The position numbers and the translations under genes are program-made. The notes beneath the pieces are model-generated. The model searched no databases and had not been told where the DNA came from. It saw nothing but the letters and a program-made list of their open reading frames with translations. From contig CAXMWX010000005.1 of assembly GCA_963422205.2 (NCBI GenBank), positions 416,001-480,000 on the forward strand: a stretch of 64,000 bases of DNA. Reading direction: 5' to 3'. Positions 33,374-61,342 of the stretch are shown piece by piece. The DNA is from Gammaproteobacteria bacterium. GTDB taxonomy: Bacteria > Pseudomonadota > Gammaproteobacteria > Eutrophobiales > Eutrophobiaceae. How positions within the stretch are numbered: the first letter of the stretch is position 1; the number at the start of each line of letters is the position of its first letter.

Positions 33374-34573
33374 CTACCACTCCCAGCCCATCATCAGGCA
33401 ATTCAACCCGCTGCCGATACCGAGAAAACCAACCCGGTCGCCGGATTTCAGGAAATTGCGCTGATCGGCAATCGCTGCGGTCATCGGCACGGACACCGTA
33501 CCCATGTTGCCGAGGTAAGGATAGGTGCTGAAATCTTTCTCGGCGGCAATGCCCAACTCCTTCAGGATGGTCTCCCTGTGCCCCTCGCCCACCTGATGGC
33601 AGATCACCTTGTCCACATGATCCCGCGCCCAGCCCATCGCTTTCAAGAAAGACGCCCAGGTGTTCACGCCCAGCCTGGCGCCGTGTTTCAGCACCGAGAC
33701 CGAGTCGGTGGACATGAACTCCGACATGGCCCTTGGCAGGGTCTTGGATGGGATGAGGCTAGCCAGCACAGGCGGAATCCTCTCGCTGGTCATGATCTCT
33801 CTTAACGCTGCCGGGATCACCTCCGGCTCCATCACCTCGTCAATCGTTGCCCGCAATTTATCCGGCGAGAGCATGAGCCGGCCCAACTCGGCGGGCGTGA
33901 AGGTGATCCCCCAGCGACACAGGCGATGATGCTCCGGGGCGGCCCGGGTTGTCTCGCCGATCAAACGGTGTGCGCCGCCATTGGCAAACGAGCCATCGGT
34001 AAGCAGCACCGCCGCTGCACCGGAGCCGCCGGTCAAGGTGGCCAGCGAGGAACTGAACAGGCGCATGGATTTTTCCTGTACCATGCGCTCGATCATGGTA
34101 TCGACGATCTCCCTGGCGGACTCGCAGGAGACCACGATGCCGGCACGGATCTGTTTCAGCTCAATGCGGTTGGCGATATCGATGATGCCGTTCAAGGTGC
34201 CAAGACAGGCATTGGAAATATCATAGATATAGGCATCAGTGCGGATGCCGAGCTTGTCCGCCACCGCACAGGCAGTGGCCGGTTCATAGTTCTCCCGGCA
34301 GACGCCGGAGTAGATCAACGCACCGATGTCCATTGCGCTGACGTTGCTCGCCTGTAACGCCTTGCGCGCTGCCGCCGCCGCCCCATCGGACAGGGCATGG
34401 CCCTTATCCCACCAGCGACGCTCGGCGATGCCGGTCAGCGCCTCCAACTGGCCCGGGGCGATATGCAGTGCATCGTACATGGGCATCAGGCGCTCTTCCA
34501 AATCGCCGGAGGTGATGACCTCAGCCGGCAACTCATAGCCGATGGACTCCATATAGACATGGCGATAGTTCAT
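33374..34573 (-). CDS. oleA: OleA thiolase-fold acyl-CoA condensing enzyme
   Basis: EPATA, DISNACLG, ATLTGGSGA, CHQVG, YLGNMG and GIGSGLNC. Confidence 0.92.
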   Translation of the reverse strand: MNYRHVYMESIGYELPAEVITSGDLEERLMPMYDALHIAPGQLEALTGIAERRWWDKGHALSDGAAAAARKALQASNVSAMDIGALIYSGVCRENYEPATACAVADKLGIRTDAYIYDISNACLGTLNGIIDIANRIELKQIRAGIVVSCESAREIVDTMIERMVQEKSMRLFSSSLATLTGGSGAAAVLLTDGSFANGGAHRLIGETTRAAPEHHRLCRWGITFTPAELGRLMLSPDKLRATIDEVMEPEVIPAALREIMTSERIPPVLASLIPSKTLPRAMSEFMSTDSVSVLKHGARLGVNTWASFLKAMGWARDHVDKVICHQVGEGHRETILKELGIAAEKDFSTYPYLGNMGTVSVPMTAAIADQRNFLKSGDRVGFLGIGSGLNCLMMGWEW

Positions 34574-37500: not shown

Positions 37501-40500
37501 AAAGGGCTGCACCGCCTGCCCGATAAGGGAGTCGGCCGCTGCCTCGCTAGTCACTTCGTAGGGCCGGCCCCAGGCGGTGCTGTAGAACTGCACCCCGGCG
37601 GGCGGCGTGGTCTTGAGCAGGTGCAGTTGCCGGTATTCCTCGGCCACCGGCAAGGCCACCTCGCAATGCACCGTGGTCACGCCATGCAGCGGATGAAACT
37701 GACAGGCAAGATTCGCCACCAGCGCCTCAACCGCCGTGCGCTCGCCGCCGATGACGCACTCATTCGGTGTGTTTACGATCAGCAGATACACCCGCTGCCT
37801 GCCGCCCGGATCAATGTGCAGGCTGGCCTTGATCTGCCGGGCAGAGCGATTGACCACACCTGCCTGCCAGTCGATCGTGACCGCCTCATCGGTGATCCCC
37901 CAGGCCCGGCGCGCCGCCTCAAAAGGCCCGGCCAAATCACGCACGAACAGCGATGAGCGCTGCATGCGCCGCAACATCTGATCGCGCCCCACCCAGGTAC
38001 GGCTGGCAAACAGGCCGGTGGTCTCGCCCAGGCTGTAGCCGATGATGGCGTCCGGGCGAACGGCATGGCGGGCCAGTATGTCGCTGATCAGCGTACCCAG
38101 CCAGACCTGGCCGAAGATCACTTCCTCGCATGATGGTGCTGATCCATCCGAGGCAGACCAGAAACGCCCCCCGGCAAACTGGCTGGCAAGGTAATCGTTT
38201 TCCTGATCCAGCCGCTCCAGAACGTCCGGCCAGGCGCATGCCGCCTCCCGGCCCATGCCGTGAAAATGATTGCCCGCACCGGGAAAGACAAAGGCCAGCC
38301 GGCCCGTCGCTGCCTGTGGCCCGGCCAAAGGCTGGGGGCTGAAAAACACTTCGCCATCGGCGATGGCCGTGTTGTTTTGCACGGCTGGCAGCGCCCGCTC
38401 GATCAGCTGCCGCAGGTGCTGAGGATTGCCGGCCAGTAATGACAGGGCCAGCGGATGCTGCTGGTCATTCTCTTGCAGGCATCGCCGCGCCAGGTGTTGC
38501 ACGGATAACTGCTGGTCGGTCGCCTGTGCTGTTAATTGCTGAAGTCGTGCTGCCAGCGCACCAGGGTCAACCGCCGTCAATGACAACAGGGTCAGCGGCA
38601 ATGGCAGCGCCAATGGCTGGCTGCTCTCTGCCTGCTGTAACACCACGGCGATATGATTGCCATCCACACTGCCCGCCTGTACCAGGCGGTGACGTGGTCC
38701 GGACTTCCGATCCCGTAACCAGGGCTGTGGCTGGCCGCCGTCCCGCCCCGGCAGCAACCGATGATGCAGAGACAGGCTGTCCCGCACGACGTTGAGCAGT
38801 CCGGCCGCCGCGCCGTACTCGGCGTAATCCATCGCCGCCCCCTGCCCGCCTTCTCGCTCATCCGCATCCAGCCCGGCCTCCCGCAAGCCCTGGCCGATGG
38901 CGGCCCCGGCCTGCATCGCATTGCCCAGGCCGCTGACCAGGGCGTAGATGCGATCACCGGCCTTGAGCGCATCTTTGTGCCGCTTGAGTATTAAAGACAC
39001 GGCCGCATCGCCAGCGTGATTAATAGTATGGTCACGGGCGGCGGCCAGGCGCACATCGCTGGCAAAATCCACCGCACCCACAATGGCGGTGTTGATCTCC
39101 TGTCGCTGCAAGGCACGTGTGCCCAGCATCAGCGCGCGCAGGCCGGACGCCTGTTCATTCGATACGGTAAAACTCGGCCCGCCCAGGCGATAGGCACGGG
39201 CGATGCGGCTGGCGATGATGCCTCCCAGCGCGCCCATGGTGCGGTTGGCGGTCAGGGGCGGACTGATGGCCTGGCGTATTTCACCCGTCCAGGCGGCCAG
39301 CGCATCATCATCCCGTCGCAAACCCAGCCGCACCGCCCAGCGCCGGGCGCATTCCAACAGGCCCCAGCGCAGATGATAATTGGTCGTGTTCAAATCCAGG
39401 GCGATACCGATGTACGCCCCCGCCTCTCGCAACGCCTCAGCCTCATCCTGTTCCATGCCGGCATCGGCCAGGGCATCGGCGGCCACCTGCAGCATCAACA
39501 CCTGCTGCGGCAACATGGCTTTTAGCTCGGTCGGCGGAATGCGAAACCGCCCGGCGGGAATACCGATGGCAGCTATCGTTCGCTGTGGCTGACTCTGGCG
39601 GCCAAACAACTGCTCGGCAAATGCCGCCAGCCGTTCACACTCGCCGTGCCAGGTGGCCATCCCGATAATGGCGATGTCCTCTGTTGCCTGCTCTGTCATT
39701 CGAGGCGACCAGGCCACGGCGATGGCGTGATCCGGCGGCGGCTCACCGCACCACTCCTCCAGCAGGACGTGGGCATTGATACCGCCAAAACCAAACGCAC
39801 TGACGGCCGCCCGTCTTGGGCTTGCTGCTGTGCGCCGTGGCCAGTCAGCGGCCAACTGCAAGACCCTGAACGGGCTGGCATCCAGCGCAACGGCAGCGGA
39901 CTCAAAATTGGCCGTTGGGGGCAACACCCGGTGCTGCATGGCGAGCAAGACCTTGATCACCCCGGCCGCACCGGCGGCTGTCAACAGGTGACCGATATTG
40001 CTTTTGACCGAGCCAATCACGCACGCACGCTGTCCCCCACCCTCACCATGCAGGCGCCGCAGGCTGTCAAACTCCACGGCATCGCCAATGGGCGTGCCAG
40101 TGCCGTGGCATTCGATCAGATCAACATCGCCAGGATGCCAGTCGGCCTGTTGATAGGCGGCGTACATGGCACGTAGCTGGCCTTCTGAATCCGGCGCCAT
40201 GAGATTACCGCCAATATCATTCGACAAGCCCATACCGGCGATGGTGGCATAAATACGATCACCCTGTGCCAGCGCATCAGGCAGGCGTTTGAGCAGCAAC
40301 ATGCCACAGCCCTCGCCCACCACCAAGCCATCCGCCCGCCGATCAAACGGCGCACACCGGCCGCTGGCAGAGATGGCATGCAGGGCCGAGAAGCCCATCT
40401 GCGTATACAGGGAATCCGGCCGTGACAAGCCGCCGCAAAGCATGGCGTCCGCTCGCCCGGCCTGTAGCTCATCCACAGCATACTTCAGCGCATACAGCGA

Positions 40501-41070
40501 TGAAGCACAGGCCGCATCCAGCGTATAACTGCCGCCGGTAAGACCCAGCGCCTGTGCCAGCAGGCCGGCAGGCAGGCCAGCAACATAGGCATTGTACGGA
40601 TGGGTTGCCGCCGGCCTTGCTGCCGTGCCGAATAACTGTTGCTCAAACTGGGGTAGAACATGCTCATCGGCAAGGCGTGAGGCGGCATCGGTGGGCAGGA
40701 CGATATTGCCGATGATGATGCCGGTTCGGTGCTTGTCGATGCGCTCGGTGCGGCCATCCTGCCAGGCTTGACGCCCGGCATGGAGTAGCAGATGCACCAT
40801 GGGATCGAGTGAGTCGATGAATGCTGAGTCCAGCGCCAAACCGGTATGGCCAAGGGTGAAGCCTTCCACAAAACAGGCGCGCTTTGAATAGACCTTGTCG
40901 GGCTTGGGGCCGGCGGGATCGTAGGCATCGGCCAGCGGCAGCAGCCAGCGGCCAGCGGGCGGCTCCCTGGTACAGTCCCTGGCGGCAACGATATGCTCCC
41001 AAAATTGATCAAGATCACCGGCCCCGGGAAATATCCCCCCCATGCCAACGATGGCGATGCGTTGTTTCAT
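34570..41070 (-). CDS. PUFA synthase PfaBC/Pfa3-type subunit (KS-CLF-AT-FabA-like DH domains)
   Basis: KS DAACASS/HGTGT/NIGH; CLF-like VSNEQASGL; AT FVFPGAG...GYSLGE; FabA-like DH motifs CHFIDDQVMPG and AHFYQDPVWPGSLG. Stop overlaps the oleA ATG. Confidence 0.9.
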   Translation of the reverse strand: MKQRIAIVGMGGIFPGAGDLDQFWEHIVAARDCTREPPAGRWLLPLADAYDPAGPKPDKVYSKRACFVEGFTLGHTGLALDSAFIDSLDPMVHLLLHAGRQAWQDGRTERIDKHRTGIIIGNIVLPTDAASRLADEHVLPQFEQQLFGTAARPAATHPYNAYVAGLPAGLLAQALGLTGGSYTLDAACASSLYALKYAVDELQAGRADAMLCGGLSRPDSLYTQMGFSALHAISASGRCAPFDRRADGLVVGEGCGMLLLKRLPDALAQGDRIYATIAGMGLSNDIGGNLMAPDSEGQLRAMYAAYQQADWHPGDVDLIECHGTGTPIGDAVEFDSLRRLHGEGGGQRACVIGSVKSNIGHLLTAAGAAGVIKVLLAMQHRVLPPTANFESAAVALDASPFRVLQLAADWPRRTAASPRRAAVSAFGFGGINAHVLLEEWCGEPPPDHAIAVAWSPRMTEQATEDIAIIGMATWHGECERLAAFAEQLFGRQSQPQRTIAAIGIPAGRFRIPPTELKAMLPQQVLMLQVAADALADAGMEQDEAEALREAGAYIGIALDLNTTNYHLRWGLLECARRWAVRLGLRRDDDALAAWTGEIRQAISPPLTANRTMGALGGIIASRIARAYRLGGPSFTVSNEQASGLRALMLGTRALQRQEINTAIVGAVDFASDVRLAAARDHTINHAGDAAVSLILKRHKDALKAGDRIYALVSGLGNAMQAGAAIGQGLREAGLDADEREGGQGAAMDYAEYGAAAGLLNVVRDSLSLHHRLLPGRDGGQPQPWLRDRKSGPRHRLVQAGSVDGNHIAVVLQQAESSQPLALPLPLTLLSLTAVDPGALAARLQQLTAQATDQQLSVQHLARRCLQENDQQHPLALSLLAGNPQHLRQLIERALPAVQNNTAIADGEVFFSPQPLAGPQAATGRLAFVFPGAGNHFHGMGREAACAWPDVLERLDQENDYLASQFAGGRFWSASDGSAPSCEEVIFGQVWLGTLISDILARHAVRPDAIIGYSLGETTGLFASRTWVGRDQMLRRMQRSSLFVRDLAGPFEAARRAWGITDEAVTIDWQAGVVNRSARQIKASLHIDPGGRQRVYLLIVNTPNECVIGGERTAVEALVANLACQFHPLHGVTTVHCEVALPVAEEYRQLHLLKTTPPAGVQFYSTAWGRPYEVTSEAAADSLIGQAVQPFDYPRLIERAYQDGVRLFIEPGPGSSCSRMIGDILKGRPHLALAACIKGQHGAESVLRVLAQLNTERVAMDLHDLYREPLSPDCQPSPAMIDIPVVRPAIRISRPAPSPVVARGELPAAGGDVVVHPAMQVVAQLQQVETAHAAAQAAFLQVAQGISKTMHQAVTMQLALLHAVPSASGQPPVAVATLPAAPPAKPVALPPRADVVFDRAMCMEFATGAIARVLGPAFAEVDSHPTRVRLPAPPLMLVDRILTLEGAPASMAPGRVVTEHDVKPGAWYLDGGRIPTCIAVEAGQADLFLSAYLGIDLQTRGRACYRLLDAEVTFHAPLPQAGQVIRYDIRIERFFRQGDTWLFHFRFDGEVDGRLLITMRHGCAGFFTEAQLAAGKGIVLSALDGQVQTGSCATGWQALVPMQAAAYSDAQLDALRAGDLAACFGSAFAGLDLQQPAGLPGGRMTLVHRILELNPAGGRFGMGHIIGEADIRPDDWFITCHFIDDQVMPGTLMYECCLHTLRVYLLRLGWVGEAERMVYEPVPGVAGKLKCRGQVLASTNKVQYAISIKTLGYTEAGIPYVIADALMSADGQAIVQMTDLSLQLSNLRKQQLHTLWRTQKAATPGPVLFDYASIHAFAVGKPSEAFGERYRVFDDERVIARLPGPPFQFLDRIVSIDQCQPWQLAAGGVIRAAYDVPADAWYFIENRQPEMPFAVLLEVALQPCGWLAAYLGSALTSQTDLSFRNLGGTARQCLPVRADVGTLTTEIRITRVSQSGGMIIQHYDFAVSSAAGLVYQGDTYFGFFSRAALARQVGLRECTPYQPAASELAGHTICDYPSAPPFPARMMRMVDRIDGYSPDGGPQALGFICGQADVDPAAWFFQAHFYQDPVWPGSLGLESFIQLLKYVAYDRWGGQAGSVRFAAPGRDAAHSWVYRGQILPTDSQVSIEAVITARDEAQKRLTADGLLSVDGRIIYQMRDFTLTMSSS

Positions 41071-41176
41071 GCAGATGGTTGAGATGAGTGCAAGGCGGCA
41101 GGATAACACAGGCAAAGCGCCGTGTGGTATCTTATTGGTGAGACAGCACCCCATGCTGCATAACGGAGATAAACGG

Positions 41177-44100
41177 ATGACCCAGAGACTACTAGCCGAT
41201 TTTTGTCATCAGTATTCCCTGTCAAAGACCTTGCGTTTTGCGCTAAGACCTGTTGGGGAAACTGAACAGTTCATAGCAAACAAGGGTTTGCTTGAAGAAG
41301 ACGAGGAACGGGTTGAAAAGTATAAACAGGCCAAAAAGATCATAGATGAATATCACAAAGACTTTATCAACCGCAGTCTTGAGGGTTTTTGTTTTGAAGA
41401 AAAGGATTTGGAGAATTTCCATGAAGCCTACTACACGTTCAAGAACAGTGACAATAAAGACAGTCAAGACTTCGAGGGTAAACAGACTAAATTGCGTGAA
41501 GCCATAGGGAAACAATTCAATACACAAAGATTATTCACAAAACATTTTATTAAAGAGACATTGCCGGAATGGCTGAAAGAGAGAACCCTGCAAATTGAAG
41601 GCGTTGACGACCCCGGAGCCATTATCAAAGATTTTGAAGACTGGACGACATATTTTCGTGGTTTTAATGAAAACCGCAAAAATATTTACAAAGAAGAAAA
41701 AGGGCCCAGGAGCACTTCCATCGGCTATCGTCTCATCCATGAGAATTTACCCCGGTTCATTGACAATATAAAACGCTACAAAGACGCAAGAGAGCTGAAT
41801 GTGGATTTTTCTGACGTGGAAAGGATTTTTGACGTTGACCTGGATCAGGTCTTTTCACTTGAATATTACAACCATTGTCTGACTCAGAGGGGAATTGATA
41901 CTTACAATCAAATTTTAGGTGGGCAGAGCGAACAGGGGAATGTGAAAAAACAAGGCGTAAACGAGAAAATCAACCTTCATGCTCAGCAATTAAAAAGCGA
42001 AGGCTCAAATGCCACTGATGAGCGTAAAAAAGAACTCGAAGAAAAAGCTAAAAAAGTCCGCTCCTGCAAACTGGAAAAACTCCACAAACAAATTCTCAGC
42101 GACAGAAGTGAACTCTCTTTTCGTTTGGAGGAGATAGATAGTGATGCCAGCTTGTGTGCAGCCATATTATTAAAATTCAAAATTGACGATGCTGAAAATC
42201 TCATAGGCAAAGACAAAGATATTAACATCACAGAAAATCTTGAAAAGTCCTTAACGCCGCTTAAAGATGCCGACCCTGAAAAGATATATGTCAATAATCG
42301 CTCTATAGCAGCCATTTCACAAAATCTTTTTAAGAACTGGAATACGATTAATGATTGTCTGGAATATTATGCCGAAAAGAAACTCTATCCCGTTCCCGAA
42401 AGGGAAAAAGAAACCAAGAAACTCTTAGACCAAAGAGAACAATGGTGCAAACAGTCCTACTTCTCCTTTACGGATATTCATAAGGCGTTGGAGACTTACT
42501 TTGAGCAATATACAGGGGACGAATTGAAAGATGAGCAAAAATCAGAGGGGGTAAATGACGGCTTGAACATAAAAGAGCAAAAGGAAATCGCTGAGAGCAG
42601 GCCGCTTTTTGTCTATTTTGAAAGACTGGCTATAAGAAAAAAGAACCAGGAAAACAATACATTTGAATCAAAACATCTGCTTGAAGAAATCCAGAGAACA
42701 TTTAAGGAGGCGCTTCCGGTATTAGAAGAATACGAATGTATAGAGGAAGAAAAGCTGAAGAATGAAAAAGACAAAGTGCAAAAAATCAAACACTATCTTG
42801 ATGCCTTGATGGATCTGCAATATTTCCTGAAGTCCCTATCCGTCCAACTCAGCAAAAAAGAGGAAGAAAAAGCAGTTGAACTATATGAAAAAGACACTGG
42901 ATTTTATGAAGGTTTTGACGCTTTATTTGAAGTCGTTGAACAAATCGTTCCTCTCTACAACAAGACCCGAAACTACCTGACGAAAAAACCCTACAGCGTA
43001 GAGAAATACAAGCTGAATTTTGAAAACCAGGAACTTGCGGATGGCTGGGATAAAAACAAAGAAAAGGCTAATACCTGTGTGCTGTTGATGAAAGACGGGC
43101 AGTATTTTCTTGGCATAATGGACAGAGAACACAAGAAGATATTTGAAGGGGGCTTGCCCGATGAAGGCCAATGCTATAGAAAAATTGTTTACAAACAAAT
43201 CGCAAATGCCGGAAAAGATATTCAAAACCTGATCCGTATCAACGGCAAGTTTGAAAGAAAGACCAAAAAATTAGATGAACTCAAAAAACAGTATATTCCT
43301 GATATTTATGAAATAAGAAAGCGCGAATCACATAAAACTACAAATAAAAATTTTAACAAGGCTGACCTGATAAAATTTATTGATTACTACAAAGAAGCAG
43401 CAATAGCCTATTGGGACTGGTATGATTTTTCTTTTAAGAAGAGCAATAAATACGACAGCTTTAAAGAGTTTACCGACCATGTAAATAGCCAGGGATACAA
43501 GATTAAATTTCAGGATGTTTCAGAAACCCATATTGATGATTGCGTAAAAAAGGGGAAACTCTACCTTTTCCAGATTTACAGCAAAGATTTTTCGCCCAAA
43601 ACAAGAGGCAAGCCCAACTTGCAGACACTTTACTGGAAAGCCTTGTTTGATGATAAAAACCTGCGCGATGTTGTTTACAAACTCAACGGTAAGGCGGAAC
43701 TCTTTTACCGGAACCCATCTATTGAATATTCACCGTCAATCTGGGAAAAAGGACACCACGCTGGAAAAATAAGGCAGACATACCCCATTATCAAAGATCA
43801 CCGCTATGCCAAGGCTACATACTTATTTCATGTGTCAATCCAGTGTAACTTCAAAGCGGGCACAAAAAACTCCACCGATTTCAACCGCGAAGTCAGAGAC
43901 TCTCTCAAAGACAATTCGGAGGTGAATATCATAGGATTGATCGCGGCGAGAGACATTTGGCTTATTACACGGTAATAAACCAGAGAGGAGAAATTCTTAA
44001 AGACGCAAATGGAGAGCATTTGCAGGGGAGTTTAAACAAACCCCTCGGCGAAAAAGACTACCAGGAGCTTTTACACAAGCGGGAAAAAGACAGGGACAAA

Positions 44101-45117
44101 AACAGAAAATCCTGGGGAACAGTTGAAAAAATCAAAGACTTGAAAGAAGGGTATTTATCTCAAGTAGTGCATAAAATTGCAAAACTCATGGTGGAACACA
44201 ATGCCATAGTGGTTTTTGAAGATTTGAATTTCGGCTTTAAGAAAGGTCGTTTCAAGGTGGAAAAACAGGTCTATCAAAAGCTGGAAAAGATGCTCATTGA
44301 CAAACTCAATTACCTTGTATTCAAGGATAAAAATCCCAATGAGGCAGGCGGCCTTCTAAATGCCTTGCAACTCACCGCTCCGTTTGTAAGTTTCCAGGGG
44401 CTGGGCAAGCAAACGGGGTTTATTTTTTATGTGCCCGCATATCATACCTCTAAGGTTTGCCCCGCAACCGGGTTTGTCAACCTGCTGTATCCGCGATATG
44501 AGACCATTAAAAAAGCACAGGAGTTCTGCAAAAAATTCAACAAAATCTGTTTTAACAAAGAACAAAACTGCTTTGAGTTTCACTTTCACTATGAAAAGTT
44601 CACAAATAAAGCCGAAGGGGGCAGGCAGGATTGGGTTTTGTGCAGTCACGATGTGCGGCTGGAAAATTTCAAAAATGGAAAAAGTCAATGGCAAACTCGT
44701 GAGATAAACCTGAATGAGAAGATGGAAAAATTATTCAAGGATTATTTGATTGATTTTGATGACGGGCAATGTTTGATTGAGAAAATCGCTCAACAGGATA
44801 AAAGTGAATTTTTCAAATCATTGCTCCGCCTGCTCAAACTCACCCTGCAAATGCGTAACAACAGAATAGGAAAAGATGAAGACTGGCTTATTTCACCGGT
44901 GAAAGACAGCGAGGGTAACTTTTTTGACTCACGCAAAGCGGATACTTCCATGCCACAAAACGCGGATGCCAACGGTGCCTACCATATTGCGCTTAAAGGT
45001 TTGCTGATGCTTGAGCAACTCAGAAATAGTGAAAATGAAAATTTCAAACCGGATTTGTCCAATAAGGCATGGTATGAATTTCTGGCAGAGCGGCATGGAA
45101 ACAAAAGCAGCAATTAG
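41177..45117 (+). pseudogene. cas12a: Type V-A effector Cas12a (Cpf1), split by a 1-nt deletion at about 43936
   Basis: YSLSKTLRF, KKIIDEYHK, WTTYFRGFNENRKNIY, YRLIHENLPRF, LYNKTRNY, LADGWDKNKE, LYLFQIY.KDFS. RuvC-I IG(I)DRGERHL is split across frames; RuvC-II VVFEDLN and RuvC-III ADANGAYHIA are intact. About 1313 aa if repaired. Confidence 0.95.
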
Positions 45118-45125
45118 AACAAAAT

Positions 45126-45683
45126 ATGGAAACCTGTCTGCCCATCTCCTATCTGAACGACTTTGTTTTCTGCCCCCGCTCTATTTATTTCCATCAACTC
45201 TATGGTCGTACCGAGCAGAGGCTGTATCAGACCACCGCCCAGACCGCTGGCAAGGCGGCGCACAAGACGATTGACGAGAGGCGTTATACCACGGCGAAAA
45301 ACGTGTTGCAGGGACTTGATGTTTACAGCGAAAAATACGCTATCGGCGGCAAGATAGATGTATATGACAAATCGAAGGCTTTGCTGACGGAGCGCAAAAA
45401 GAAAATCAAAACGATTTACGATGGCTACATATACCAGCTTTTTGCACAGTATCACTGCCTGACCGAGATGGGCTATAAGGTTGCGCGATTGCAGTTATAC
45501 AGCATGGCGGATAACCGGGTTTATCCTGTTAAAACGCCATTGGAAGACCCGGAGATGCAGCGGCAGTTTGAGCAACTTGTCGCGGCAATCAGGCAGTATG
45601 ATCTCCAGGCCCCGTTTGAACCTGATGAGAAAAAATGCAGGCAGTGTATCTATTGCAATCTTTGTGATGTTGCAAAATGTTGA
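45126..45683 (+). CDS. cas4: Cas4 (type V-A associated)
   Basis: ISYLNDFVFCPRSIYFH, GKIDVY, ERKKKIK..YDGY..QL.AQY and CRQCIYCNLC Fe-S cysteines. Confidence 0.93.
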   Translation: METCLPISYLNDFVFCPRSIYFHQLYGRTEQRLYQTTAQTAGKAAHKTIDERRYTTAKNVLQGLDVYSEKYAIGGKIDVYDKSKALLTERKKKIKTIYDGYIYQLFAQYHCLTEMGYKVARLQLYSMADNRVYPVKTPLEDPEMQRQFEQLVAAIRQYDLQAPFEPDEKKCRQCIYCNLCDVAKC

Positions 45684-46639
45684 GCGCACCTGACTTTAAA
45701 CAAAAAAAGATTATCTTCGCATTGCTGAGCCATGGAGAAAAACTCAGCTTTAAAAATGATAATGTTATCATCACGGATGATGATGGCATCAGGCATCAGT
45801 CCAGTTGTTATCGCTTGTTTGCCCTGTTTGTTGTTGGCCATATCACCATCACATCAGGCTTGCTGCAACGGGCCAAAAAATTTGGCTTCAGTATTGTCTT
45901 AATGACCCATGGCCTGATCCCCCATGGAAGCTGGCTGGCTAAAGCGGAGGGTAATGTCCTGTTAAGGAAAAGACAGTACAACTATCAGGGTCTGGAGATA
46001 GCCAGGCATCTGATAAACGACAAGATCGAGCAACAGGTACAGAACCTGAAAAAGCGCAGGAAGAAGCCGGAGAAATTAAAACAGGCAATAACGGCTTTGC
46101 AAGCCTATCAATATCGACTGGCTAATGATTATGCCGACTTGCAGAACATCCTGGGCATTGAGGGGATCGCCTCCCGTGTGTATTTTCAGGCCATGTTCGC
46201 CGATATGGCGTGGGCTGGCAGACAGCCGAGGGCGAAGCAGGATATAACCAACCTGCTGCTGGACATTGGCTATATGCAGTTATTTCATATCATTGATGCC
46301 CTGCTGAATCTGTATGGTTTTGATACCTATCAGGGCGTTTATCATCAGGCGTTCTATCAGCGTAAATCGCTGGTGTGCGATCTGGTGGAGCCATTCAGGC
46401 CCATCGTTGATTTGGGGATCAGAAATGCATATCAGCGCGGGCAGATCCACCAAGCTGATTTCAGCTATGTGAACGGTCAATACCGGCTATTCGGCAAGGC
46501 CAGTCAGCCTTATGTGAGGCTCCTGCTGCAATCTGTTCTGGCGCACAAGCAGGCGATATTCCTTTATGTGCAAGGTTACTACAGGGCATTTATGCGGGAT
46601 AAACCCATTGATCAATACCCTGTATTTAAGAGAGATTGA
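45677..46639 (+). CDS. cas1: Cas1 (type V-A associated)
   Basis: LSFKNDN, GIEGIASRVYF, NLLLDIGY and GVYHQAFYQRKSLVCDLVEPFR. Confidence 0.94.
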   Translation: MLSAPDFKQKKIIFALLSHGEKLSFKNDNVIITDDDGIRHQSSCYRLFALFVVGHITITSGLLQRAKKFGFSIVLMTHGLIPHGSWLAKAEGNVLLRKRQYNYQGLEIARHLINDKIEQQVQNLKKRRKKPEKLKQAITALQAYQYRLANDYADLQNILGIEGIASRVYFQAMFADMAWAGRQPRAKQDITNLLLDIGYMQLFHIIDALLNLYGFDTYQGVYHQAFYQRKSLVCDLVEPFRPIVDLGIRNAYQRGQIHQADFSYVNGQYRLFGKASQPYVRLLLQSVLAHKQAIFLYVQGYYRAFMRDKPIDQYPVFKRD

Positions 46640-46914
46640 CATTGCTTATCGTGACCTATGATATCAGTGACAATAAACTCAGAACCAGATTTGCTGCGTT
46701 TCTTTCACGCTTTGGCTATCGATTGCAGTACTCCGTGTTTGAAATCAAAAACAGCAGGCGTCTGCTGGCGCTCATAGCGGCAGAAATACAGGCAGATTAT
46801 GAGAAAAAGTTTTCACAAAGCGATAGCGTGATTATTTTTAATTTGAGCAAGCAATGTAAAATCACCCGCTACGGCTATGCAAAAGATGATGATGAAGATT
46901 TAATTATTATCTGA
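46636..46914 (+). CDS. cas2: Cas2
   Basis: LIVTYDISDNKLRTRF...GYRLQYSVFE. Confidence 0.95.
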   Translation: MTLLIVTYDISDNKLRTRFAAFLSRFGYRLQYSVFEIKNSRRLLALIAAEIQADYEKKFSQSDSVIIFNLSKQCKITRYGYAKDDDEDLIII

Positions 46915-47035
46915 TAGAATTGCCTATGTTGGTCTTTATGGGCGCAAACGATGCGATATCAGCGTTTTTATGCAACCAGACTGTTAAGAATGCCTGGCAA
47001 GTTATTGAAATATCCTGCTTGCAGCAGATTTATCT
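46915..47035 (+). promoter_or_regulatory. CRISPR leader
   Basis: Non-coding segment between cas2 and the first intact repeat; the degenerate repeat is at the far end, which orients the array. Confidence 0.7.
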
Positions 47036-47879
47036 GTCTAAGACCGATAACTAATTTCTACTGTTGTAGATTTGGCAGGCGCCATCTTGCCATCGGTGTC
47101 TAAGACCGATAACTAATTTCTACTGTTGTAGATCATCACGCCCTTCAATCCCTTGCTGCGTCTAAGACCGATAACTAATTTCTACTGTTGTAGATTTAGC
47201 ACCCCCCGCCCTTGCAACGGTGGTCTAAGACCGATAACTAATTTCTACTGTTGTAGATTCCTGCATGCCGATCATGAGCAGAAGTCTAAGACCGATAACT
47301 AATTTCTACTGTTGTAGATGAAGACTTCTGGGTTGTAGGTTATGTGGTCTAAGACCGATAACTAATTTCTACTGTTGTAGATATACCAAGCTGCTGCTGC
47401 AGGCAAATGTCTAAGACCGATAACTAATTTCTACTGTTGTAGATTCGGACTGACCAAGTCGACGTTAAGATGTCTAAGACCGATAACTAATTTCTACTGT
47501 TGTAGATATATCCGTCTGCCATCGGTCTTCCATGCGTCTAAGACCGATAACTAATTTCTACTGTTGTAGATACTGCGGCGCATCTTGTATCTTTTTCGGG
47601 TCTAAGACCGATAACTAATTTCTACTGTTGTAGATTTCTGAGCGGTATGGTTATACGCTGTAGTCTAAGACCGATAACTAATTTCTACTGTTGTAGATAA
47701 GGCGATCTCTGAGTCCGGATCTCTTGTCTAAGACCGATAACTAATTTCTACTGTTGTAGATGAATGCGGCCATATGAGTTTCCCTTGGGTCTAAGACCGA
47801 TAACTAATTTCTACTGTTGTAGATTTGTATAAAATGACCGGAATAACAGATGTCTAAGACCGATAACTAATTTCTACTG
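47036..47879 (+). CRISPR. Type V-A array: 13 full 36-nt repeats plus 1 truncated repeat, 13 spacers of 25-28 nt
   Basis: Repeat GTCTAAGACCGATAACTAATTTCTACTGTTGTAGAT, ending in the Cas12a handle AATTTCTACTGTTGTAGAT. Starts at 47036, 47098, 47160, 47223, 47284, 47347, 47409, 47472, 47536, 47600, 47663, 47726, 47789 and 47852 (truncated). Confidence 0.99.
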
Positions 47880-47930
47880 AACTTCACACAGTCAGGCGCG
47901 AACAACCCCGCCGTCCCATAACACCTCACC

Positions 47931-50900
47931 TTATGAGGACAAGCTGGCCTGCTTATCTAGCGTGTTACGGGCGAAGGCGGCATTCAGCGATTCATCGATC
48001 ACGCATTCATACTCATCCAGCCGGGCGATCACCTGCTGTCCTTCATCCAGAAATTCGATATTCGCCCTGGCAGTGCCCTCGCTGGCGCTCACGATTTCGC
48101 TGATGATGCTGACGCCCGCCCGCGGCAGGCGTTGTTGAAACTGGCGGTAGCGGCCGATGCGGGTGGGCAGGCAACCCCTGCCGGAGTGAGCAAAACTCCA
48201 CAGGATCATCAGTTGAAACGCCGCATCCAGCAGGGCCGGGTCAGCATACCAGGAGGAGCGGATGGGCTGTGCCATCCACGCTGACGGCGGCGGGGCGGAG
48301 GCAGCGCATCCCTGGATGCCCGTATCAGAGCAAGCCAGCACCTCGGTCACGGATTGCAACAGCGGGCCGTGAAATAGCTGGCCGTTGGCATAATACGCCG
48401 GCCAGCTCAGCGCATAATCGCCGGTGATTGCGCCCAGCCGGTGGTCGGTGTTTGTCGCTGGCTGACTGCCCAGGATGATGCTCGCCCTGGCGTGACGCCT
48501 ATTGCCGCTGCACAATTCAACCGGCACGTAGCGAACATCACCGATGCCTTGCTCGGTACCGGCCATGATCTGTAATGGCCGCTGCTCGGCACCTGTCAGC
48601 GTCACCCCTTTCAGGATCTGCAAGTCATCCAGGCCAGCAAACCGCAAGCCCGGATTGGCGTGTATCGCCCCGTGGATCAACCATTCGGCGATCAAGGCGG
48701 CCGGCAGCACAGCCCGCCCGTTGATGACGTGATGCGCCAGCACCGGGTAGTCCTTGACAGTCAGCAGGCGCTCAAACGCCAGCCGGAGACCCCCGGCCTC
48801 GGTGGCGGCGGGCGCTTGTTCTTGTTCTGACAGATACGCCGGAGCCGGCGCTGACCCTGAGATAACGATCTCCACCTCATCCGCCTTGCTGCCCAACTCA
48901 TCCAGCAAGTACGCCGCACCAGCGCGCAAGCCGATCACCTCAACGCCTTCGCTGGCGAATAGCTGCTTTAGCGCGGGTGTCACCATGCCGCCATCCCAGG
49001 GCCCCCAGTTCAGACTGAGCACGCGACAGCTCGGGCGCTGCCTCCGTTGTTGCTGTGCCAGCTTGTTGAGCACCTCGTTGGCGGCGGCATAATCGGCCTG
49101 TCCGCGGCGGCCAAAACGGGCGCTGGATGAGGAGAACATGACGATCGCCTTCAGCGCATCGTTTGCCGTTGCCCGCAGCAGCGCTTCGGCCCCAGCCACC
49201 TTGGTGCTGAACACGTCCTGAAACTGCTCGGCGGTTTTATCTTCAATCAGCTTGTCGGCCAGCACGCCGGCCGCGTGAATCACCCCGCTGATCGGGCCTA
49301 ACTCCGCCCGCGCCTTGTCGATGCAGGCGGCAACGGCCTCGCCGTGTCGAACGTCCACGGCCTGGTAGCTAACCGTCACGCCGCCCTCCCGCATGCGCTC
49401 AAGGTTATGGCGGATCTCCCTGGCGGCCAGGATCGCCTGACAGGTCTTCTCGGCGATTGCCGGGCTGGCATCGGTCTGCCGCAGAATAATCGCCTGCCTG
49501 ACGGCGGCGGCATCGTTTACGTCCTGTAACCAGTCCGGCTCCTTCGCCGGTAACTCGCTGCGCCCCAGCAGCAGCAGATTCACCTTGAACTGCTCCGCCA
49601 GAGCAATCGCCACTTCCGCCGTCACGCCGCGCGCCCCGCCGCTCACCACCACCACATCGCCCGGCGCAAACACAGGCAGGCGGCTGGCAGACGCAGAGAC
49701 GGCCTCGGAGCGCAAGGCAATGGCGTAGCGATGTTGCTCGGTCAGCCCCACCTCCAGCGGGCCTGCCGTGAGCAGTTCAGGCAAGAGGCGTTCACGCAGC
49801 GTCTCACCCACATCTGCCGGGAGGTCCAGCACCTTGCAATGCACATGCGGCCATTCCTTATCGGCGGTCTTGATCAGGCCACTGATCCCGGCACTGTGGG
49901 CGCTGGCCGACAGCGACCCTGTCAGGGCAAAGCGGCCACCTTGCCGGGTGATGCCGACAAGCAGTTGCAGATGCTCGGAATTGACCGCCTGCATCAAGGC
50001 GAAACCGGCCTCAATAAACGCCGCATCGGCCGCTGGTGGGGTCAGTATGATGAGGCCACCTGTGGGCATGGCCGGATGCTCATCAATCGCGATGATCGTT
50101 GCGTTGATGCCAGCGGCATGACACTGGGCTGCCAGTTGCCGCGGCAGCCGGCTGCCATCATCGGTAATGCACAGCGGCGCATCAGCGGCCAGGATCAGTG
50201 GCTGCCCGGCCTTATCATCCAGCTCAACCAGCGTGACCGGACAGCGATACAGCGATTGCCCGACAGATTGACCAGCAGATAATTCAGATGATGGCCCAGG
50301 AGATGGCTCAGGGGATGGCTCGGTAAGGGCGGCATCAACGCGTGCATCGGCAGCGGTAGCCGGCCCGGCGGCCTGCATATAATCAATGATCTGCCGCAGG
50401 GTTTGCAGGCTGGCGAGATCTTCCGGGGCAACCGCCGGTGCCGCCGGCAGGCGCTCCTGCAAGGCAGATAAGATCTCCACCCGCTTGATGGAGTCGATCC
50501 CCAGATCGGTGTCCAGATGCATGTCCACATCCAGCATCTCAGGCGGATAACCGGTCTTCTCGGCAACCACCTCCAGCATGGTGGCCTGCCAGGTCATATC
50601 GGCAACGGCGGCCTCAACAGGCGGCGGGGTGCTGGCGGGCGCGGGCGGCGGGGCGGCCAGGTCATCGTCCGTGGCAAGGTACTCAACAATGTGCGCCAGC
50701 ACCTGAAAGGTGCCAAGTTGCTCTGGCTGGATCTTGCTCATCGCCGGCAGGCGCTCCTGCAAGGCAGATAAGATCTCCACCCGCTTGATGGAATCGATGC
50801 CCAAATCGGTGTCGAGACTCATCTCCAGGCTCAACATGTCGACCGGGTAACCGGTCTTCTCGGCAACCACCTCCAGCAACAGGCGGGCAAAAAACGCCTG

Positions 50901-53900
50901 CCCATGTGTGGCGGCATCCCTGACCGCATCAGGGATGTTGCCCGGGGCGTCATTGGCAGACCGATCTGCCGTGTCGGGTGCTGGCCTCATCTCAGGTGCT
51001 GCCGACCTGTCCGTGGCAACGGGCGGGGTGTCGACAATCGGGGGCGCCAGCTCGACAACCGGAGGCGTATCGGGCTGGATGCCGAGCTGCTGCTGCTGTT
51101 GGGTGATAAGTTGCTGAATGGATTGCTGTGCTGCCGCCTGCCCTTGCAGGTATTGTTGATGCAATGCCGCCGTTTGCTCCTGCATCTTTTGCAGGGCGAG
51201 AATGCTCTGCTGGGCGATGGGCAGGGCGCTGTCGGGCGGTACGTGATCCGGCTGCGCCGTCATCGGCAGGTGCGGGGAGGCATCAGCCTGCATCCCGGTG
51301 CGGGTGCCGTGGTCACTCACTGGCCGGGCGGGCGGGGCCTGGGGTGGCTGTGGCGGGGGAGTTACGGGGTCACGTCGGGGCCGCGGGTTGACGTGATTGG
51401 CGCCGCTGACCGTCACCGTCATGGCAGGTTTTTTCTCATTCACGCAGCGATCAAGATAACCTGCATCCCATGGCGTCAAATCCAGGCTGAAGCCGGCCAC
51501 GCTGAGGCGTGCCAGCAAACAGGCCAGATCATATTGGCCGTGGCGGCGGCCCCTGGAGGCATCCAGGGCGATGGCCTGATGCGGCTTGTCGGTCAAAATG
51601 GCCTTGACCAACGATGTCAGGGTATTGCCCGGCCCGACTTCAACGAAGGTATCAATGCCATCGGCGTACATGTTTTCGATCTGACTGACGAACTCCACCG
51701 GCCTTGCCAGTTGGCTGGCGAGTAACTGCCTGGCGGCATCGGCATCCGCCGGATACGGTCTGGCGGTGGCGTTGGCAAAGACGGGCATATCGGCCTTGCC
51801 AAATTCAACATCCTGCAGATACGCAGCGAATGGCCTCTCTGCCGCGGCCACATAGCTGCTGTGAAAAGCCGCCGCCACCGGCAGGCGGCTTGAGCGAATG
51901 CCGCGTCGGGTCAACAGCGCCTCGGCCTCGGCAATCGCCGCCGTGGCGCCGGACAGGACGACCTGGGCCGGGGCATTGTGATTGGCGATGATGAGATCCA
52001 GCGGCTCGGCCTCCAGCATCTCGTGCAGCACGGCGGCGGATGCCGAAGCCGCCAGCATGGCGCCCTGATCATCCTGCTCGCCAACATTGGCCTGCATCAG
52101 CTGGCCGCGCTTGTTCGCCAGCCGAAATAAATCCTGGCGACTGATGCGCCCGGCGGCATACAAGGCGCTGAGCTCGCCAAAGCTGTGCCCTGCCGTGGCA
52201 TGGAACGGCACGGCAAACCGCTGCAATACGTCCAGGGCGCCAATGCTGATGGCACCGATGGCCGGCTGGGCATAGCGAGTGGTACGCAGCTGCTCTGCCT
52301 GCTGTTGTGCCGCCTGTTCGGTAAATACGGACGGCGGATAGATCACATCTGACAGGTAATCGGTTACATCACATTCCCGGCATACTGCATTGGCCAGTTC
52401 CAGAGCCTGGCGCAACTGGGGAGATTGGCAGGCGAGATCAAGCAGCATATTCACATACTGTGCGCCCTGGCCGGGGAACAGCAGGGCCAGCTTGCCGTGC
52501 TCCCCGGTGTGGCTGAAACAGATCCCGTCCGGGCGATGCCATGCAGGTTCATCCGGCGGGCGGGCCAGTATCTCGGCCGCGGCGGCCAGCGTTTGCTGAT
52601 ACTCGGCGGTACGCTCCATGACCATCGCCAGGCGGCAGGGCTGTTGTGCGTCAAACCGGAGTAACGAGCGGGCGGCCACGGCGCGCAACACCGGCCAGGC
52701 AACTGTCGCATCAATATCGGCCAGTTGCTGTTGCAGGCTGTTGATGCTCTCCCCTGACAAGGCGAGCAAGAGCACCTCGCCATCCCATTCAATCTCCGGC
52801 TTGCTCTCTGGCGCCTCTTCCAGCACACAGTGAAAATTGCTGCCGCCAAAACCGAAGGCACTCAGTGCTGCCCGACGTGGCTGGCCGGTCTTGTTCACCC
52901 ACGGACGCTTGCGGGCGTTGACATACACCGGCGCACTGCCGGGCTGAAGCTGTGCCAGCGGCTGCCTGACCTTCAGCGTGGGCGGCAGGACGTGATGCTG
53001 CAAGGCCTTGATCAGCTTGATCATACCGGCGATTCCGGCGGCCGACTTGGTATGGCCGATCATGGATTTTACCGAGCCGATCGCACACCAGCTGCCGCCT
53101 GCATCCATCGGGTGAGGACCTTGGGCCTCGGCCTGCCGATAGACGCTGGACAGCGCCTCGATCTCCACCGCATCGCCGACTTTGGTGCCGGTGCCGTGCG
53201 CCTCAACCAACTCGATACTGCGGGGCGAGACGGCCGCCTCGGCATAGGCACGGCGCAGCGCCTTGCGCTGACCGTCCGCACTGGGAGCATAAATGGCATG
53301 ACCCCGACCATCGCTGGCCGCCCCTATGCCCTTCAACACGGCATAGACCTTATCGCCATCACGTTGTGCATCCGCCAGCCGCTTGAGCACCACCACGCCC
53401 AGGCCCTCGCCCAGAATGGTGCCATCACCTTCGCTGTCAAAGGGCTTGGCATCGCCCGTGGGTGACAAGGCCGGCGTCTTGCTGAAGCACATGTACATGA
53501 AGATATCGTTAAAGGTATCCAGGCCGCCGGTAATCGCCATGTCAGCCCGGTTCGTGTATAACTCCATCGCTGCCATGTGTACGGCGCTCAGGGAGCTGGC
53601 ACAGGCAGCATCGACCACGCAATTCGTACCGCCCAGATCAAACCGGTTGGCAATCCGGCCAGCCGCCACATTGCCCAAAAGACCGGGGAAGGAGTTCTCC
53701 TGCCAGGGAACATACTGCTCGCTGATGCGCTGCACCACCTCCTCGGCGGTGGCGGGATCAACGCCAGCCTCGGCCAGGGCGCGGCGCCAGAGGGGATGCC
53801 CCAGACGGGCGCCCAGCGGGATCACCAGTTCCAGCGTGCCAGTCACCCCCAGGATGACGCTCGTCCGGTCGCGGTCAAACGGGCGCCCATCGTGGTTCTC

Positions 53901-56017: not shown

Positions 56018-56283
56018 AGTGAAAACCCAAGCTACTGTTTTATATACCCTTTTATTTGTTTGCTTCGCCTGATGGCGATGCCCGGGCCAAGCCGTAAGCA
56101 AGCCAACTGAAAACCCGGCAGCAGCAGCATCGTACAGCATTCGCCAGCCGGCCTGCCATGCTGCCGTATTATAACGCAGGTATCCAGCAACTTTATGCCA
56201 TTGTGCGTGATTTGTAATTGTTTGCTTAGCATGAGCGAAACAACATACACTTAGGCAACACGGCAATGATCTGTAAGGTGAGT

Positions 56284-61338: not shown

Positions 61339-61342
61339 GGCG

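Follow-up and report, generated by a model that had tools for sequence, protein, structure and literature searches.

An apparently foreign type V-A CRISPR-Cas module with a frameshifted cas12a and self-matching spacers between two lipid-synthase genes

What is a type V-A CRISPR-Cas locus doing in antisense between two genes of lipid synthesis, and does it still work as an immune system? The locus lies in a 64,000-nt stretch of a Gammaproteobacteria genome (the window, to whose positions all coordinates refer unless a contig is named), where a 6.8-kb block of about 40% GC carries cas12a-cas4-cas1-cas2 and an array between pfaA and pfaBC. The original prediction described a complete locus whose position could couple immunity to lipid synthesis. 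That tempting reading is corrected here: rather than working immunity wired to lipid synthesis, we found a defective locus with self-spacers. Its two most telling features, the RuvC frameshift and the spacers that match the cell's own genome, were absent from the original prediction. It is best explained, with good confidence, as a type V-A module gained by horizontal transfer, in which interference is lost and adaptation retained.

The block and its place at the pfaA/pfaBC joint

The block is bounded by the following features.

34570..41070, minus strand: pfaBC-like synthase gene (KS-CLF-AT-4xFabA DH), intact, 2166 aa
41071..41176: pfaBC/cas12a intergenic region, 106 nt, GC about 0.50-0.57, closer to the host than to the island
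47881..47930: intergenic region up to the pfaA stop, 50 nt, host-like, GC about 0.55-0.60
47931..54452, minus strand: pfaA-like synthase gene (KS-AT-ACPs-KR-DH), intact, 2173 aa, stop codon at 47931-47933
54263..56353: pfaD-like enoyl reductase gene, preceding pfaA

The GC content fell from 0.62-0.66 to 0.35-0.49 across about 41000-48000 of the window, and the open reading frames of the block run on the opposite strand, in agreement with the AT-richer antisense insert first described. The whole-genome GC content is 52-56%, against which the pfa genes, at 63%, are in turn outliers on the GC-rich side. Both flanking genes are indeed intact, being long reading frames with full Pfam domain sets, and pfaBC is followed by oleA-B-C-D and a PPTase gene. 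By Pfam, the components of a Pfa-type synthase with linked ole genes were all present (pfaA, pfaB/C, ER, PPTase, oleABCD), the lipid product being predicted. Between 41071 and 47930, the reading frames of at least 85 aa with family matches were cas genes only, and neither the reading frames nor Pfam revealed a transposase or integrase, so the reported absence of mobility genes holds. The target duplication or terminal repeat sought at the flanks did not rise above shuffled sequences, again as first seen: the longest flanking direct repeat was 9 nt (6-13 nt in shuffles) and the longest inverted repeat, 7 nt, was within the shuffle range. The island's right edge falls inside a CRISPR repeat, of which 28 of 36 nt remain. 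A CRISPR-associated transposon or other self-mobile island was considered and rejected, there being no transposase, integrase, TniQ, inverted repeats or target-site duplication.

Normally the joint is a tight one: among 68 distant metagenome loci that offered enough sequence, 61 had the pfaBC start less than 300 bp past the pfaA stop. Among 38 judgeable genomes of the same bacterial family, the two genes were adjacent in 18, separated by 1-12 kb of unrelated cargo (sugar genes, HipA, Fic, PIN-Phd, RND pumps) in 10, and unlinked in 10. Among the unlinked cases are the closest relatives by pfaBC, in which this gene faces a divergent gene and hence needs its own promoter. A search of 125 other genomes of the family turned up Cas12a in three (G021, G060 and G057), none of which carried a CRISPR unit at the joint: G021, in which the Cas12a flanks were read, and G060 had no pfaBC match, and in G057 more than 100 kb separates pfaA from pfaBC. 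The comparison yielded no close relative with an empty site; the block is called an insertion on the basis of composition and distant relatives only. On these grounds, the sequence supports a foreign, probably horizontally acquired type V-A module placed in antisense at this joint.

Two of the alternatives that we weighed concern the position itself. The block might be a mis-join, with DNA of another organism from the same sample put between pfaA and pfaBC, as its composition, sharply unlike that of the flanks, would allow. In two public runs, both from one study and probably from the source sample of the assembly, independently made contigs covered 40500-47064 and 47850-48500 and agreed with the assembly at every position. 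Two contigs, 39.1 kb and 24.5 kb long, ran from pfaBC through all cas genes into the first repeat, and further contigs from the last repeat into pfaA. Both junctions are thus bridged by read-derived contigs, and the k-mer contigs left the array interior unbridged. Depth was alike on the two sides of the island (7.2 vs 7.3 in one run, 560 vs 691 in the other), the repeat was absent elsewhere in the genome, and four spacers copy this very genome exactly, one of them the same contig. A mis-join is therefore extremely improbable.

Alternatively, the position might be functional, with antisense or divergent transcription coupling CRISPR expression to PUFA/olefin synthesis; the original prediction held that pfaBC-ole needs either a promoter shared with cas12a or antisense read-through. 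Some of its observations stand. The divergent starts of pfaBC (41070) and cas12a (ATG at 41177, with GGAG upstream) are just 106 nt apart, and no clear terminator separates the pfaA stop from the array, terminator-like matches being no more frequent than in shuffles. The gap between the last repeat and the pfaA stop is likewise short, with the terminal repeat truncated, but counts 50 nt instead of 51. Against coupling, family genomes have unrelated cargo at the same joint, no relative has a CRISPR unit there, the effector gene is broken, and promoter-like matches were no commoner than in shuffles, with no consensus promoter at 41071..41176. Since the joint is so often interrupted or unlinked in the family, coupling is left without support and we consider it very unlikely. 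The module would instead occupy a variable spot for accessory cargo, its arrival or later trimming having perhaps proceeded by illegitimate recombination with the right end within a CRISPR repeat. Transcription of pfaBC-ole would most likely begin in the start region belonging to this unit, just as in relatives that carry it unlinked to pfaA.

A split effector beside intact adaptation genes

The block itself, all on the plus strand, reads as follows.

41177..43975: cas12a piece A (REC1, REC2, WED/PI), ending ...NIIG, 12 out-of-frame residues and a stop
43934..43941: frameshift site, one base missing at about 43936
43957..45117: cas12a piece B (rest of RuvC, Nuc), in a different frame, open from 43849
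45126..45683: cas4, type V TIGR04328, 232 bits, profile positions 3-176 of 178
45677..46639: cas1, type V TIGR04329, 381 bits, profile positions 1-316 of 317
46636..46914: cas2, TIGR01573, 45 bits, near full length
46915..47035: presumed leader, cas2 to first repeat, from position only
47036..47852: CRISPR array, 13 identical 36-nt repeats (GTCTAAGACCGATAACTAATTTCTACTGTTGTAGAT) and 13 spacers
47853..47880: truncated 14th repeat, 28 of 36 nt, forming the island's right edge with no terminator after it

The locus is not complete, as had been proposed, since cas12a is frameshifted into two reading frames. Homology nonetheless spans the whole effector. Both pieces exceeded the cut-off of 300 bits of the NCBIfam Cas12a equivalog TIGR04330, piece A with 624 bits (positions 3-793 and a second stretch) and piece B with 505 bits (909-1287), together covering positions 3-1287 of 1288, and Pfam recognized REC1, REC2, PI, RuvC_1 and NUC. 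Piece A aligned with residues 15-992 of the G021 orthologue, which is intact and 1422 aa long, and piece B with its sequence from residue 992 (IDRGERHLAYYT). Identity was 33-50% to the named Cas12a proteins found and 54-63% to the best relative, from a genome of the same family.

The base is missing after a Gly codon (43934-43936), directly ahead of the Ile-Asp codons in the RuvC-I motif IDRGER. With the stop of piece A at 43975, RuvC-I, -II and -III do not occur in one polypeptide, and piece B has no start codon upstream of the RuvC-I Asp. Piece B retains FEDLN and ADANGAY, which indicates a single lesion. In alignments with Cas12a chains of F. novicida, the last residue of piece A falls at about 915-917 and the first of piece B at about 923-925, around D917, the residue mutated to obtain a RuvC-dead enzyme (PMC9419969). 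With one base missing before the RuvC-I aspartate, a full-length nuclease cannot be made. The frameshifted sequence was identical (0 differences, 0 gaps) in contigs of the two runs, one at about 560x word depth, which rules out a random assembly error; because contigs drop rare variants, a minority of cells may carry an intact gene. By its sequence, the locus is type V-A by descent and a defective member of the type.

In the adaptation module, cas4, cas1 and cas2 are intact and match Pfam and NCBIfam models almost end to end. The 13 full repeats start at positions 47036-47824, are separated by spacers of 25-28 nt and end in TCTACTGTTGTAGAT, with a TCTAC/GTAGA stem whose hairpin was read off the sequence; the array runs in the direction of the cas genes. 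Searches of other genomes and of metagenome contigs did not recover the repeat, which also has no further copy in its own genome.

Self-matching spacers and their likely origin

Four of the 13 spacers (1, 4, 6 and 8), all among the eight closest to the leader, matched the cell's own chromosome at 100% outside any array, each beside a T-rich PAM. They are given here with spacer 3, all on the plus strand.

47072..47097: spacer 1, 26/26 to C9:167422-167447, Mu-like prophage protease/gpI-like gene, PAM TTTA
47196..47222: spacer 3, same sequence over 27/27 nt as a portion of spacer 89 in the type I-G-like array of contig C3
47259..47283: spacer 4, 25/25 to C5:290489-290513, citrate synthase gene between sucA and mdh, PAM TTTA
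47383..47408: spacer 6, 26/26 to C7:608570-608595, glyoxalase-family gene on the same contig as the locus, PAM TTTT
47508..47535: spacer 8, 28/28 to C9:36741-36768, PAM TTTC, and 27/28 on C11 with the same PAM

The spacer 8 target is a multi-copy gene of 251 aa and no known family beside an autotransporter gene. Because TTTN precedes 1.8% of genome positions, four of four would arise by chance with a probability of about 1e-7; the 5' PAM is thus T-rich throughout, with one instance (TTTT, spacer 6) departing from canonical TTTV. Target strands were mixed, two spacers matching the coding and two the template strand, and the four targets had no common functional theme. In comparison, the I-G-like array of the same genome, which stands beside apparently intact cas genes, had no full self-match outside arrays among its 161 spacers (0/161 vs 4/13, Fisher p = 2e-5), and so provides a built-in control.

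The two arrays have one spacer exactly in common and another in part, offset by 1-2 bases, as would be expected if both systems read a 5' TTT-type PAM. The flank of the spacer 3 match on C3 is not a TTTV PAM.

Exact self-spacers with usable PAMs beside a frameshift at RuvC-I form a known pattern of escape from autoimmunity, and tolerance of the self-spacers is the best reading of this locus; mutation of cas genes is a recognized way out of self-targeting (PMC7708048). We infer a causal link between frameshift and self-spacers. Selection may have favored the frameshift as a way out of lethal self-targeting, or the frameshift may have come first, with self-derived spacers then accumulating without penalty. 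Under either order of events, the PAMs would have been chosen by Cas4-Cas1-Cas2, and acquisition by these proteins is probably ongoing. In type V-A systems, Cas1-Cas2 is reported to be enough for acquisition, Cas4 to pick the TTTV PAM and Cas12a to be dispensable, its presence depleting chromosomal spacers (PMC9419969).

Cas12a might still be functional, through a sequencing artefact or recoding, and the self-spacers tolerated by way of an anti-CRISPR or other inhibitor, for example from the Mu-like prophage, which is present and itself targeted by spacer 1. Consensus-PAM self-targeting beside seemingly intact systems is described as common and has helped to uncover V-A inhibitors (PMC7708048). 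The frameshift, however, was unchanged in the contigs of both runs, its site, GGATTG, shows no homopolymer run or slippery heptamer, and, as weak evidence, no anti-CRISPR-annotated PHROGs family was matched by the 28 ORFs of one prophage region. We therefore regard a functional Cas12a as unlikely. Less likely still is a nuclease-dead, guide-RNA-dependent DNA binder, made of piece A alone or with piece B, whose self-spacers repress host genes. Piece A does retain REC1, REC2 and WED/PI, the crRNA-binding and PAM-reading parts, piece B overlaps its stop by 19 nt with a TTG start, making coupled translation conceivable, and all four targets have a usable PAM. According to the review by Wimmer and Beisel (PMC6990116), inactivated nucleases could regulate transcription, with no natural case reported by 2020. 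Such a protein would amount to dCas12a CRISPR interference arisen in nature, supplied with spacers by a still-active adaptation module and directed against citrate synthase, a glyoxalase-family gene, an autotransporter-linked gene family and prophage head genes. Against it, the truncation is a crude lesion that costs piece A the entire RuvC/Nuc lobe, the targets are mixed in strand and theme, and there is no sign of conservation, the repeat being confined to this genome among those searched.

Under the favored reading, a module with interference lost and adaptation retained, the locus would show cleanly, in a natural setting, what is predicted from plasmid experiments: with Cas12a gone, Cas4-Cas1-Cas2 can still write PAM-correct spacers, many of them derived from the host chromosome. 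For annotation pipelines, it illustrates that a cas operon "complete" by homology can conceal a single-base lesion; the survey of self-targeting states that such lesions are invisible to it (PMC7708048). The pfaA/pfaBC joint, as a recurrent site of accessory cargo in one family, may help studies of genomic hotspots.

Comparison with known systems

The flanking genes resemble described Pfa synthase/ole clusters (PMC3098273) in the domain order of pfaA and the fused pfaBC and in the linked oleABCD, PPTase and ER, linkage of ole genes to pfa-like clusters being reported there; unlike in these clusters, a foreign 6.8-kb block parts pfaA from pfaBC here. A literature search combining CRISPR, pfaA and pfaC returned no such arrangement, as judged by titles and abstract openings.

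The locus shares with that of FnCas12a in Francisella novicida U112 the order cas12a-cas4-cas1-cas2-array, a 36-nt repeat ending in a TCTACT-N4-GTAGAT hairpin and a 5' T-rich PAM, and FnCas12a is the nearest solved natural protein besides ReChb (PDB 8qwd), with E values of about 1e-128 (piece A) and 1e-125 (piece B). It differs in that the effector is split at the D917 position, the terminal repeat is truncated and 4/13 spacers are self-derived.

The decay is of a known kind, of which the locus is a further case. With reported CRISPR autoimmunity (Nobrega et al. 2020, PMC7708048; Wimmer and Beisel 2020, PMC6990116) it has in common exact, leader-side self-matches, a prophage target and an inactivating effector lesion. 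Unlike the surveyed cases, it has a second, apparently intact system in the same cell as an internal control, with one spacer in common, and its self-spacer PAMs were T-rich in 4/4, compared with a consensus PAM for about 13% of the type V self-targeting spacers surveyed (PMC7708048).

A further parallel is naive V-A adaptation in E. coli (PMC9419969), where acquisition likewise proceeds without Cas12a, the PAM is set by Cas4, and chromosome-derived spacers are reported to survive solely when Cas12a is absent or dead. That work was a plasmid experiment, whereas here the same outcome is apparently recorded in a natural array.

Layout and assembly of the island

The GC content of the window fell from 0.62–0.66 in the flanks to 0.35–0.49 across ~41000–48000. 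There, a plus-strand cas block lies antisense between two intact minus-strand genes, as stated in the original prediction, and the predicted spacings also held: the divergent pfaBC and cas12a starts are 106 nt apart, and the truncated repeat lies 50 nt from the pfaA stop. The cluster order is enoyl reductase, pfaA, island, pfaBC, oleA, oleB, oleC, oleD and PPTase, with the following features:

34570–41070, minus strand: fused pfaBC-like gene, intact (KS-CLF-AT-four FabA domains)
41177–43975 and 43957–45117, plus strand: cas12a, two ORFs in different frames; TIGR04330 matched
45126–45683, plus strand: cas4; type-V-specific NCBI model matched almost end to end
45677–46639, plus strand: cas1; type-V-specific NCBI model matched almost end to end
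46636–46914, plus strand: cas2
3′ of cas2, plus strand: array of 13 identical 36-nt repeats and 13 spacers of 25–28 nt
to 47880, plus strand: 14th repeat, stopping after 28 of 36 nt
47931–54452, minus strand: pfaA-like gene, intact (KS-AT-ACP-KR-DH)

Sequence scans returned 8 promoter-like sites where shuffled sequences gave 13.3 ± 3.9, and 7 terminator-like sites where they gave 8.7 ± 3.0, none of either kind within the 106-nt and 50-nt flanks, and Rfam gave no match at E up to 0.1 across 40500–48500. The pfa/ole cluster (29000–58000) has 58–65% GC versus 52–56% for the genome, so that the island's "host" flanks also deviate in composition from the rest of the genome; in family relatives, GC ranged from about 38% to 58% in the fetched regions. 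At 59464–62434, only a few kb away from the pfa genes, a Fic-domain gene (363 aa) comes immediately after an N6/N4 DNA methylase gene (624 aa); the two may form a defence or toxin-type pair, and GC drops to 0.47–0.49 at 59–61 kb.

Two public sequencing runs of one study, which are probably the source of the assembly, contained 91% of the sampled words of 40500–48500. Independently built contigs of both runs spanned 40500–47064 (one contig of 39.1 kb, another of 24.5 kb) and 47850–48500, with 0 differences and 0 gaps relative to the assembly and with similar depth on either side. Both island junctions raised as possible misassemblies were thus bridged by read-derived contigs, while the array interior remained unbridged, as expected at k = 31, and the array order is known from the assembly alone. 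The repeat occurred in a single array of the 2.99-Mb genome and had 0 matches in metagenome_contigs. Four spacers are copies of the organism's own genome, which ties the array to this organism. With both junctions bridged, one array in the genome and four spacers copied from that genome, we regard a mis-join by the assembler as improbable in the extreme.

The cas12a reading frame

The V-A locus had been described as complete; instead, cas12a is broken by one missing base. Piece A (41177–43975) aligned to residues 15–992 of the intact 1422-aa Cas12a of G021, the family genome with the nearest intact Cas12a locus, the alignment ending in NIIGL here where G021 has NVIGI. The open frame of piece B (43957–45117) aligned to the same protein from residue 992, IDRGERHLAYYT. 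At 43931–43959, the first frame reads ATA GGA TTG ATC..., and the frame shifted by one base gives ATT GAT CGC GGC GAG AGA CAT TTG (I-D-R-G-E-R-H-L). With F. novicida Cas12a chains as reference, piece A ends at ~915–917 and piece B starts at ~923–925. By the alignments to both proteins, exactly one base is therefore lost ahead of the catalytic Asp; D917, with E1006, is mutated to obtain RuvC-dead Cas12a, according to passages in PMC9419969.

The site contains no homopolymer run and no slippery heptamer, and the frameshifted sequence was also present in read-derived contigs, one at ~560x. Since piece B retains FEDLN and ADANGAY and the Cas12a profile is otherwise fully covered, the sequence points to a single lesion, which is probably recent. 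At the G021 locus (L064, 9456–11002), three small ORFs (104, 224 and 99 aa) lie between cas12a and cas4, whereas the window's locus is devoid of them.

Self-matching spacers and the type I-G array

All 13 V-A spacers, numbered from the cas2 side, were compared by BLAST with the whole genome of the organism. Four of them matched it perfectly outside any array:

spacer 1: 26/26, contig C9, 167422–167447, PAM TTTA
spacer 4: 25/25, contig C5, 290489–290513, PAM TTTA
spacer 6: 26/26, contig C7, 608570–608595, PAM TTTT
spacer 8: 28/28, contig C9, 36741–36768, PAM TTTC

A second match of spacer 8, 27/28 on contig C11, also has the PAM TTTC. As TTTN precedes 1.8% of genome positions, four out of four would arise by chance with a probability of ~1e-7. 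The target of spacer 1 is a head protease/gpI-like gene of a Mu-like prophage region, surrounded by Mu F, portal, terminase, major head, baseplate and sheath genes. Spacer 4 targets a citrate synthase gene between sucA and mdh, spacer 6 a glyoxalase-family gene, and spacer 8 a 251-aa gene without known family that has paralogues and adjoins an autotransporter gene. The five distal spacers showed no self-match in the whole genome.

The Mu-like prophage region (L069, contig C9, ~162000–177000) looks rearranged or decayed: its terminase is in two ORFs, its head protease and major head genes each align with no more than the C-terminal part of the respective profile, and its head and tail genes occupy opposite strands. 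These rearrangements were not read as scars of self-targeting, since both the protospacer of spacer 1 and the adjoining PAM are undamaged.

When the entire array was searched against phage and plasmid records, all matches were at chance level or derived from the repeat (E 0.3–0.9), with no plasmid among them, and spacers 2, 3, 5 and 7 had no exact match in viral_contigs. Spacer GC is mostly 44–67%, with only the oldest spacer at 32%; this proximity to the overall genome GC (52–56%) suggests that the array was filled in the present host or in similar hosts.

A second CRISPR-Cas system of the same genome, outside the window (contig C3, ~551750–577000; loci L075 and L076), served as an internal control. 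It encodes Cas2, a Cas4-Cas1 fusion and a Cas3 whose HD domain is C-terminal, along with GSU0053/GSU0054-family proteins in two sets, a gene complement that marks it as type I-G/U-like. Its very large array has 162 repeats and 161 spacers of 36–40 nt, none of which had a full self-match outside arrays, compared with 4/13 in the V-A array (Fisher p = 2e-5).

V-A spacer 3 (47196–47222) is wholly contained, 27/27, in I-G spacer 89 (match at C3, 557010–557036), and V-A spacer 11 (47699–47725) is 23/26 identical to a neighbouring I-G spacer (match at C3, 557447–557472). In both pairs the I-G spacer begins 1–2 nt upstream of the V-A spacer. This offset fits two systems whose 5′ TTT-type PAMs are shifted by one base relative to each other, and it suggests that both took spacers from a common invader at shared T-rich PAM sites. 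According to PMC9419969, the I-G PAM of G. sulfurreducens is similar to NTTN, the PAM of type V-B. Copying of spacer 3 from the I-G array DNA is less likely, the flank there being AGCA with no T-rich PAM. In run X2, one of the two public runs, the I-G version of spacer 3 was also present as a separate short contig. I-G spacer 94 (38 nt) has a 19-nt exact match to the pfaD-like enoyl reductase gene (~55232–55250, E = 2e-4), probably a chance match or a partial relic.

The pfaA–pfaBC joint and the origin of the locus

A search with the pfaA C-terminus gave 80 metagenome loci (29–49% identity), of which 12 with <1 kb after pfaA were set aside. In 61 of the remaining 68, pfaBC starts within 300 bp of pfaA, while four have gaps of 452–3500 bp and three have no pfaBC downstream; the joint is tight in distant relatives. 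Among 125 other family genomes, 57 had a pfaBC-type match at at least 56% identity, and the arrangement could be judged in 38, classed by match coordinates that were partly checked: pfaA and pfaBC were adjacent in 18 (6 confirmed by tblastn; spacers ~40–70 nt), separated by 1–12 kb in 10, and unlinked in 10. Eight of the ten gaps were fetched (L056–L063, from G115, G101, G102, G090, G122, G136, G087 and G134; G008 and G117 were left out). Their cargo comprised GDP-mannose dehydratase/epimerase (gmd/fcl-type) genes in five genomes, Fic in two, RND pump genes in two, HipA with HTH genes, a PIN-Phd pair, and a TonB receptor with two-component genes. In the closest pfaBC relatives (G017, G137, G057 and G007; 66–68% identity), pfaA is >40 kb away or elsewhere, and G017 and G137 carry a divergent 211-aa gene ~170–220 bp upstream of pfaBC. 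Given these unlinked relatives and the varied cargo, the joint looks like a family-wide variable spot for accessory genes, and pfaBC-ole, judged by gene arrangement, can stand as its own unit within the family. The proposal that pfaBC-ole needs a promoter shared with cas12a, or read-through, accordingly loses its footing. Cas12a was found in three of the 125 genomes (best G021, 54–63% identity), in none of them at the pfa joint, since G021 and G060 gave no pfaBC-type match and the G057 cas12a is >100 kb from pfaBC.

The insertion mechanism, called unexplained in the original prediction, stays so: we detected neither a mobility gene nor any repeat pair exceeding chance. In G021, the array closes with a degenerate repeat of full length and has a strong hairpin terminator, whereas in the window the final repeat breaks off at 28/36 nt and host-like DNA (GC ~0.55–0.60) follows directly, so the right edge evidently arose from a break within the array. 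This break may have occurred at integration or by a later deletion, which possibly removed the carrier of the island. The 106-nt left flank has an intermediate GC of 0.50–0.57. Alignment with insert-free relatives, suggested for defining the junctions, yielded no empty site among close relatives; of this region, the one same-genus genome, G001 (92% complete, ~200 contigs), contains just the housekeeping flank, where a contig ends. Family relatives share only 57–68% identity in pfaBC, and the 80 metagenome loci are more distant still, and the exact junctions and ancestral spacer therefore cannot be defined.

In type V-A systems, as set out in parts of PMC9419969, Cas1-Cas2 suffice for spacer acquisition, Cas4 sets the TTTV PAM, and Cas12a is unnecessary for acquisition and without effect on PAM choice. 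Sections of PMC7708048 describe cas gene mutation as a recognised escape route from self-targeting and self-targeting spacers as tending toward the leader. The present locus agrees with this picture: interference would be switched off by the cas12a frameshift, the adaptation genes are intact, and the self-spacers with correct PAMs are among the newest eight. Either the frameshift or the first self-spacer may have come first. Perfect, PAM-flanked self-matches might also be read as an anti-CRISPR acting beside a working enzyme, or as natural dCas12a-type regulation by the self-spacers, and the position between pfaA and pfaBC as lipid-gene coupling; the broken cas12a frame argues against a working enzyme, and the varied cargo at the joint in the family against the coupling. 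Together with a mis-join, these readings are unlikely, and we give dCas12a-type regulation by itself very little credence.

Limited literature searches on self-targeting found no natural V-A case with such a combination, although one may exist, and titles and abstract openings on CRISPR with pfaA and pfaC disclosed no such arrangement. The island is a type V-A locus by descent with a defective effector. It offers a natural experiment with an internal control, unsurprising to specialists, and it fits the known pattern of self-targeting and escape.
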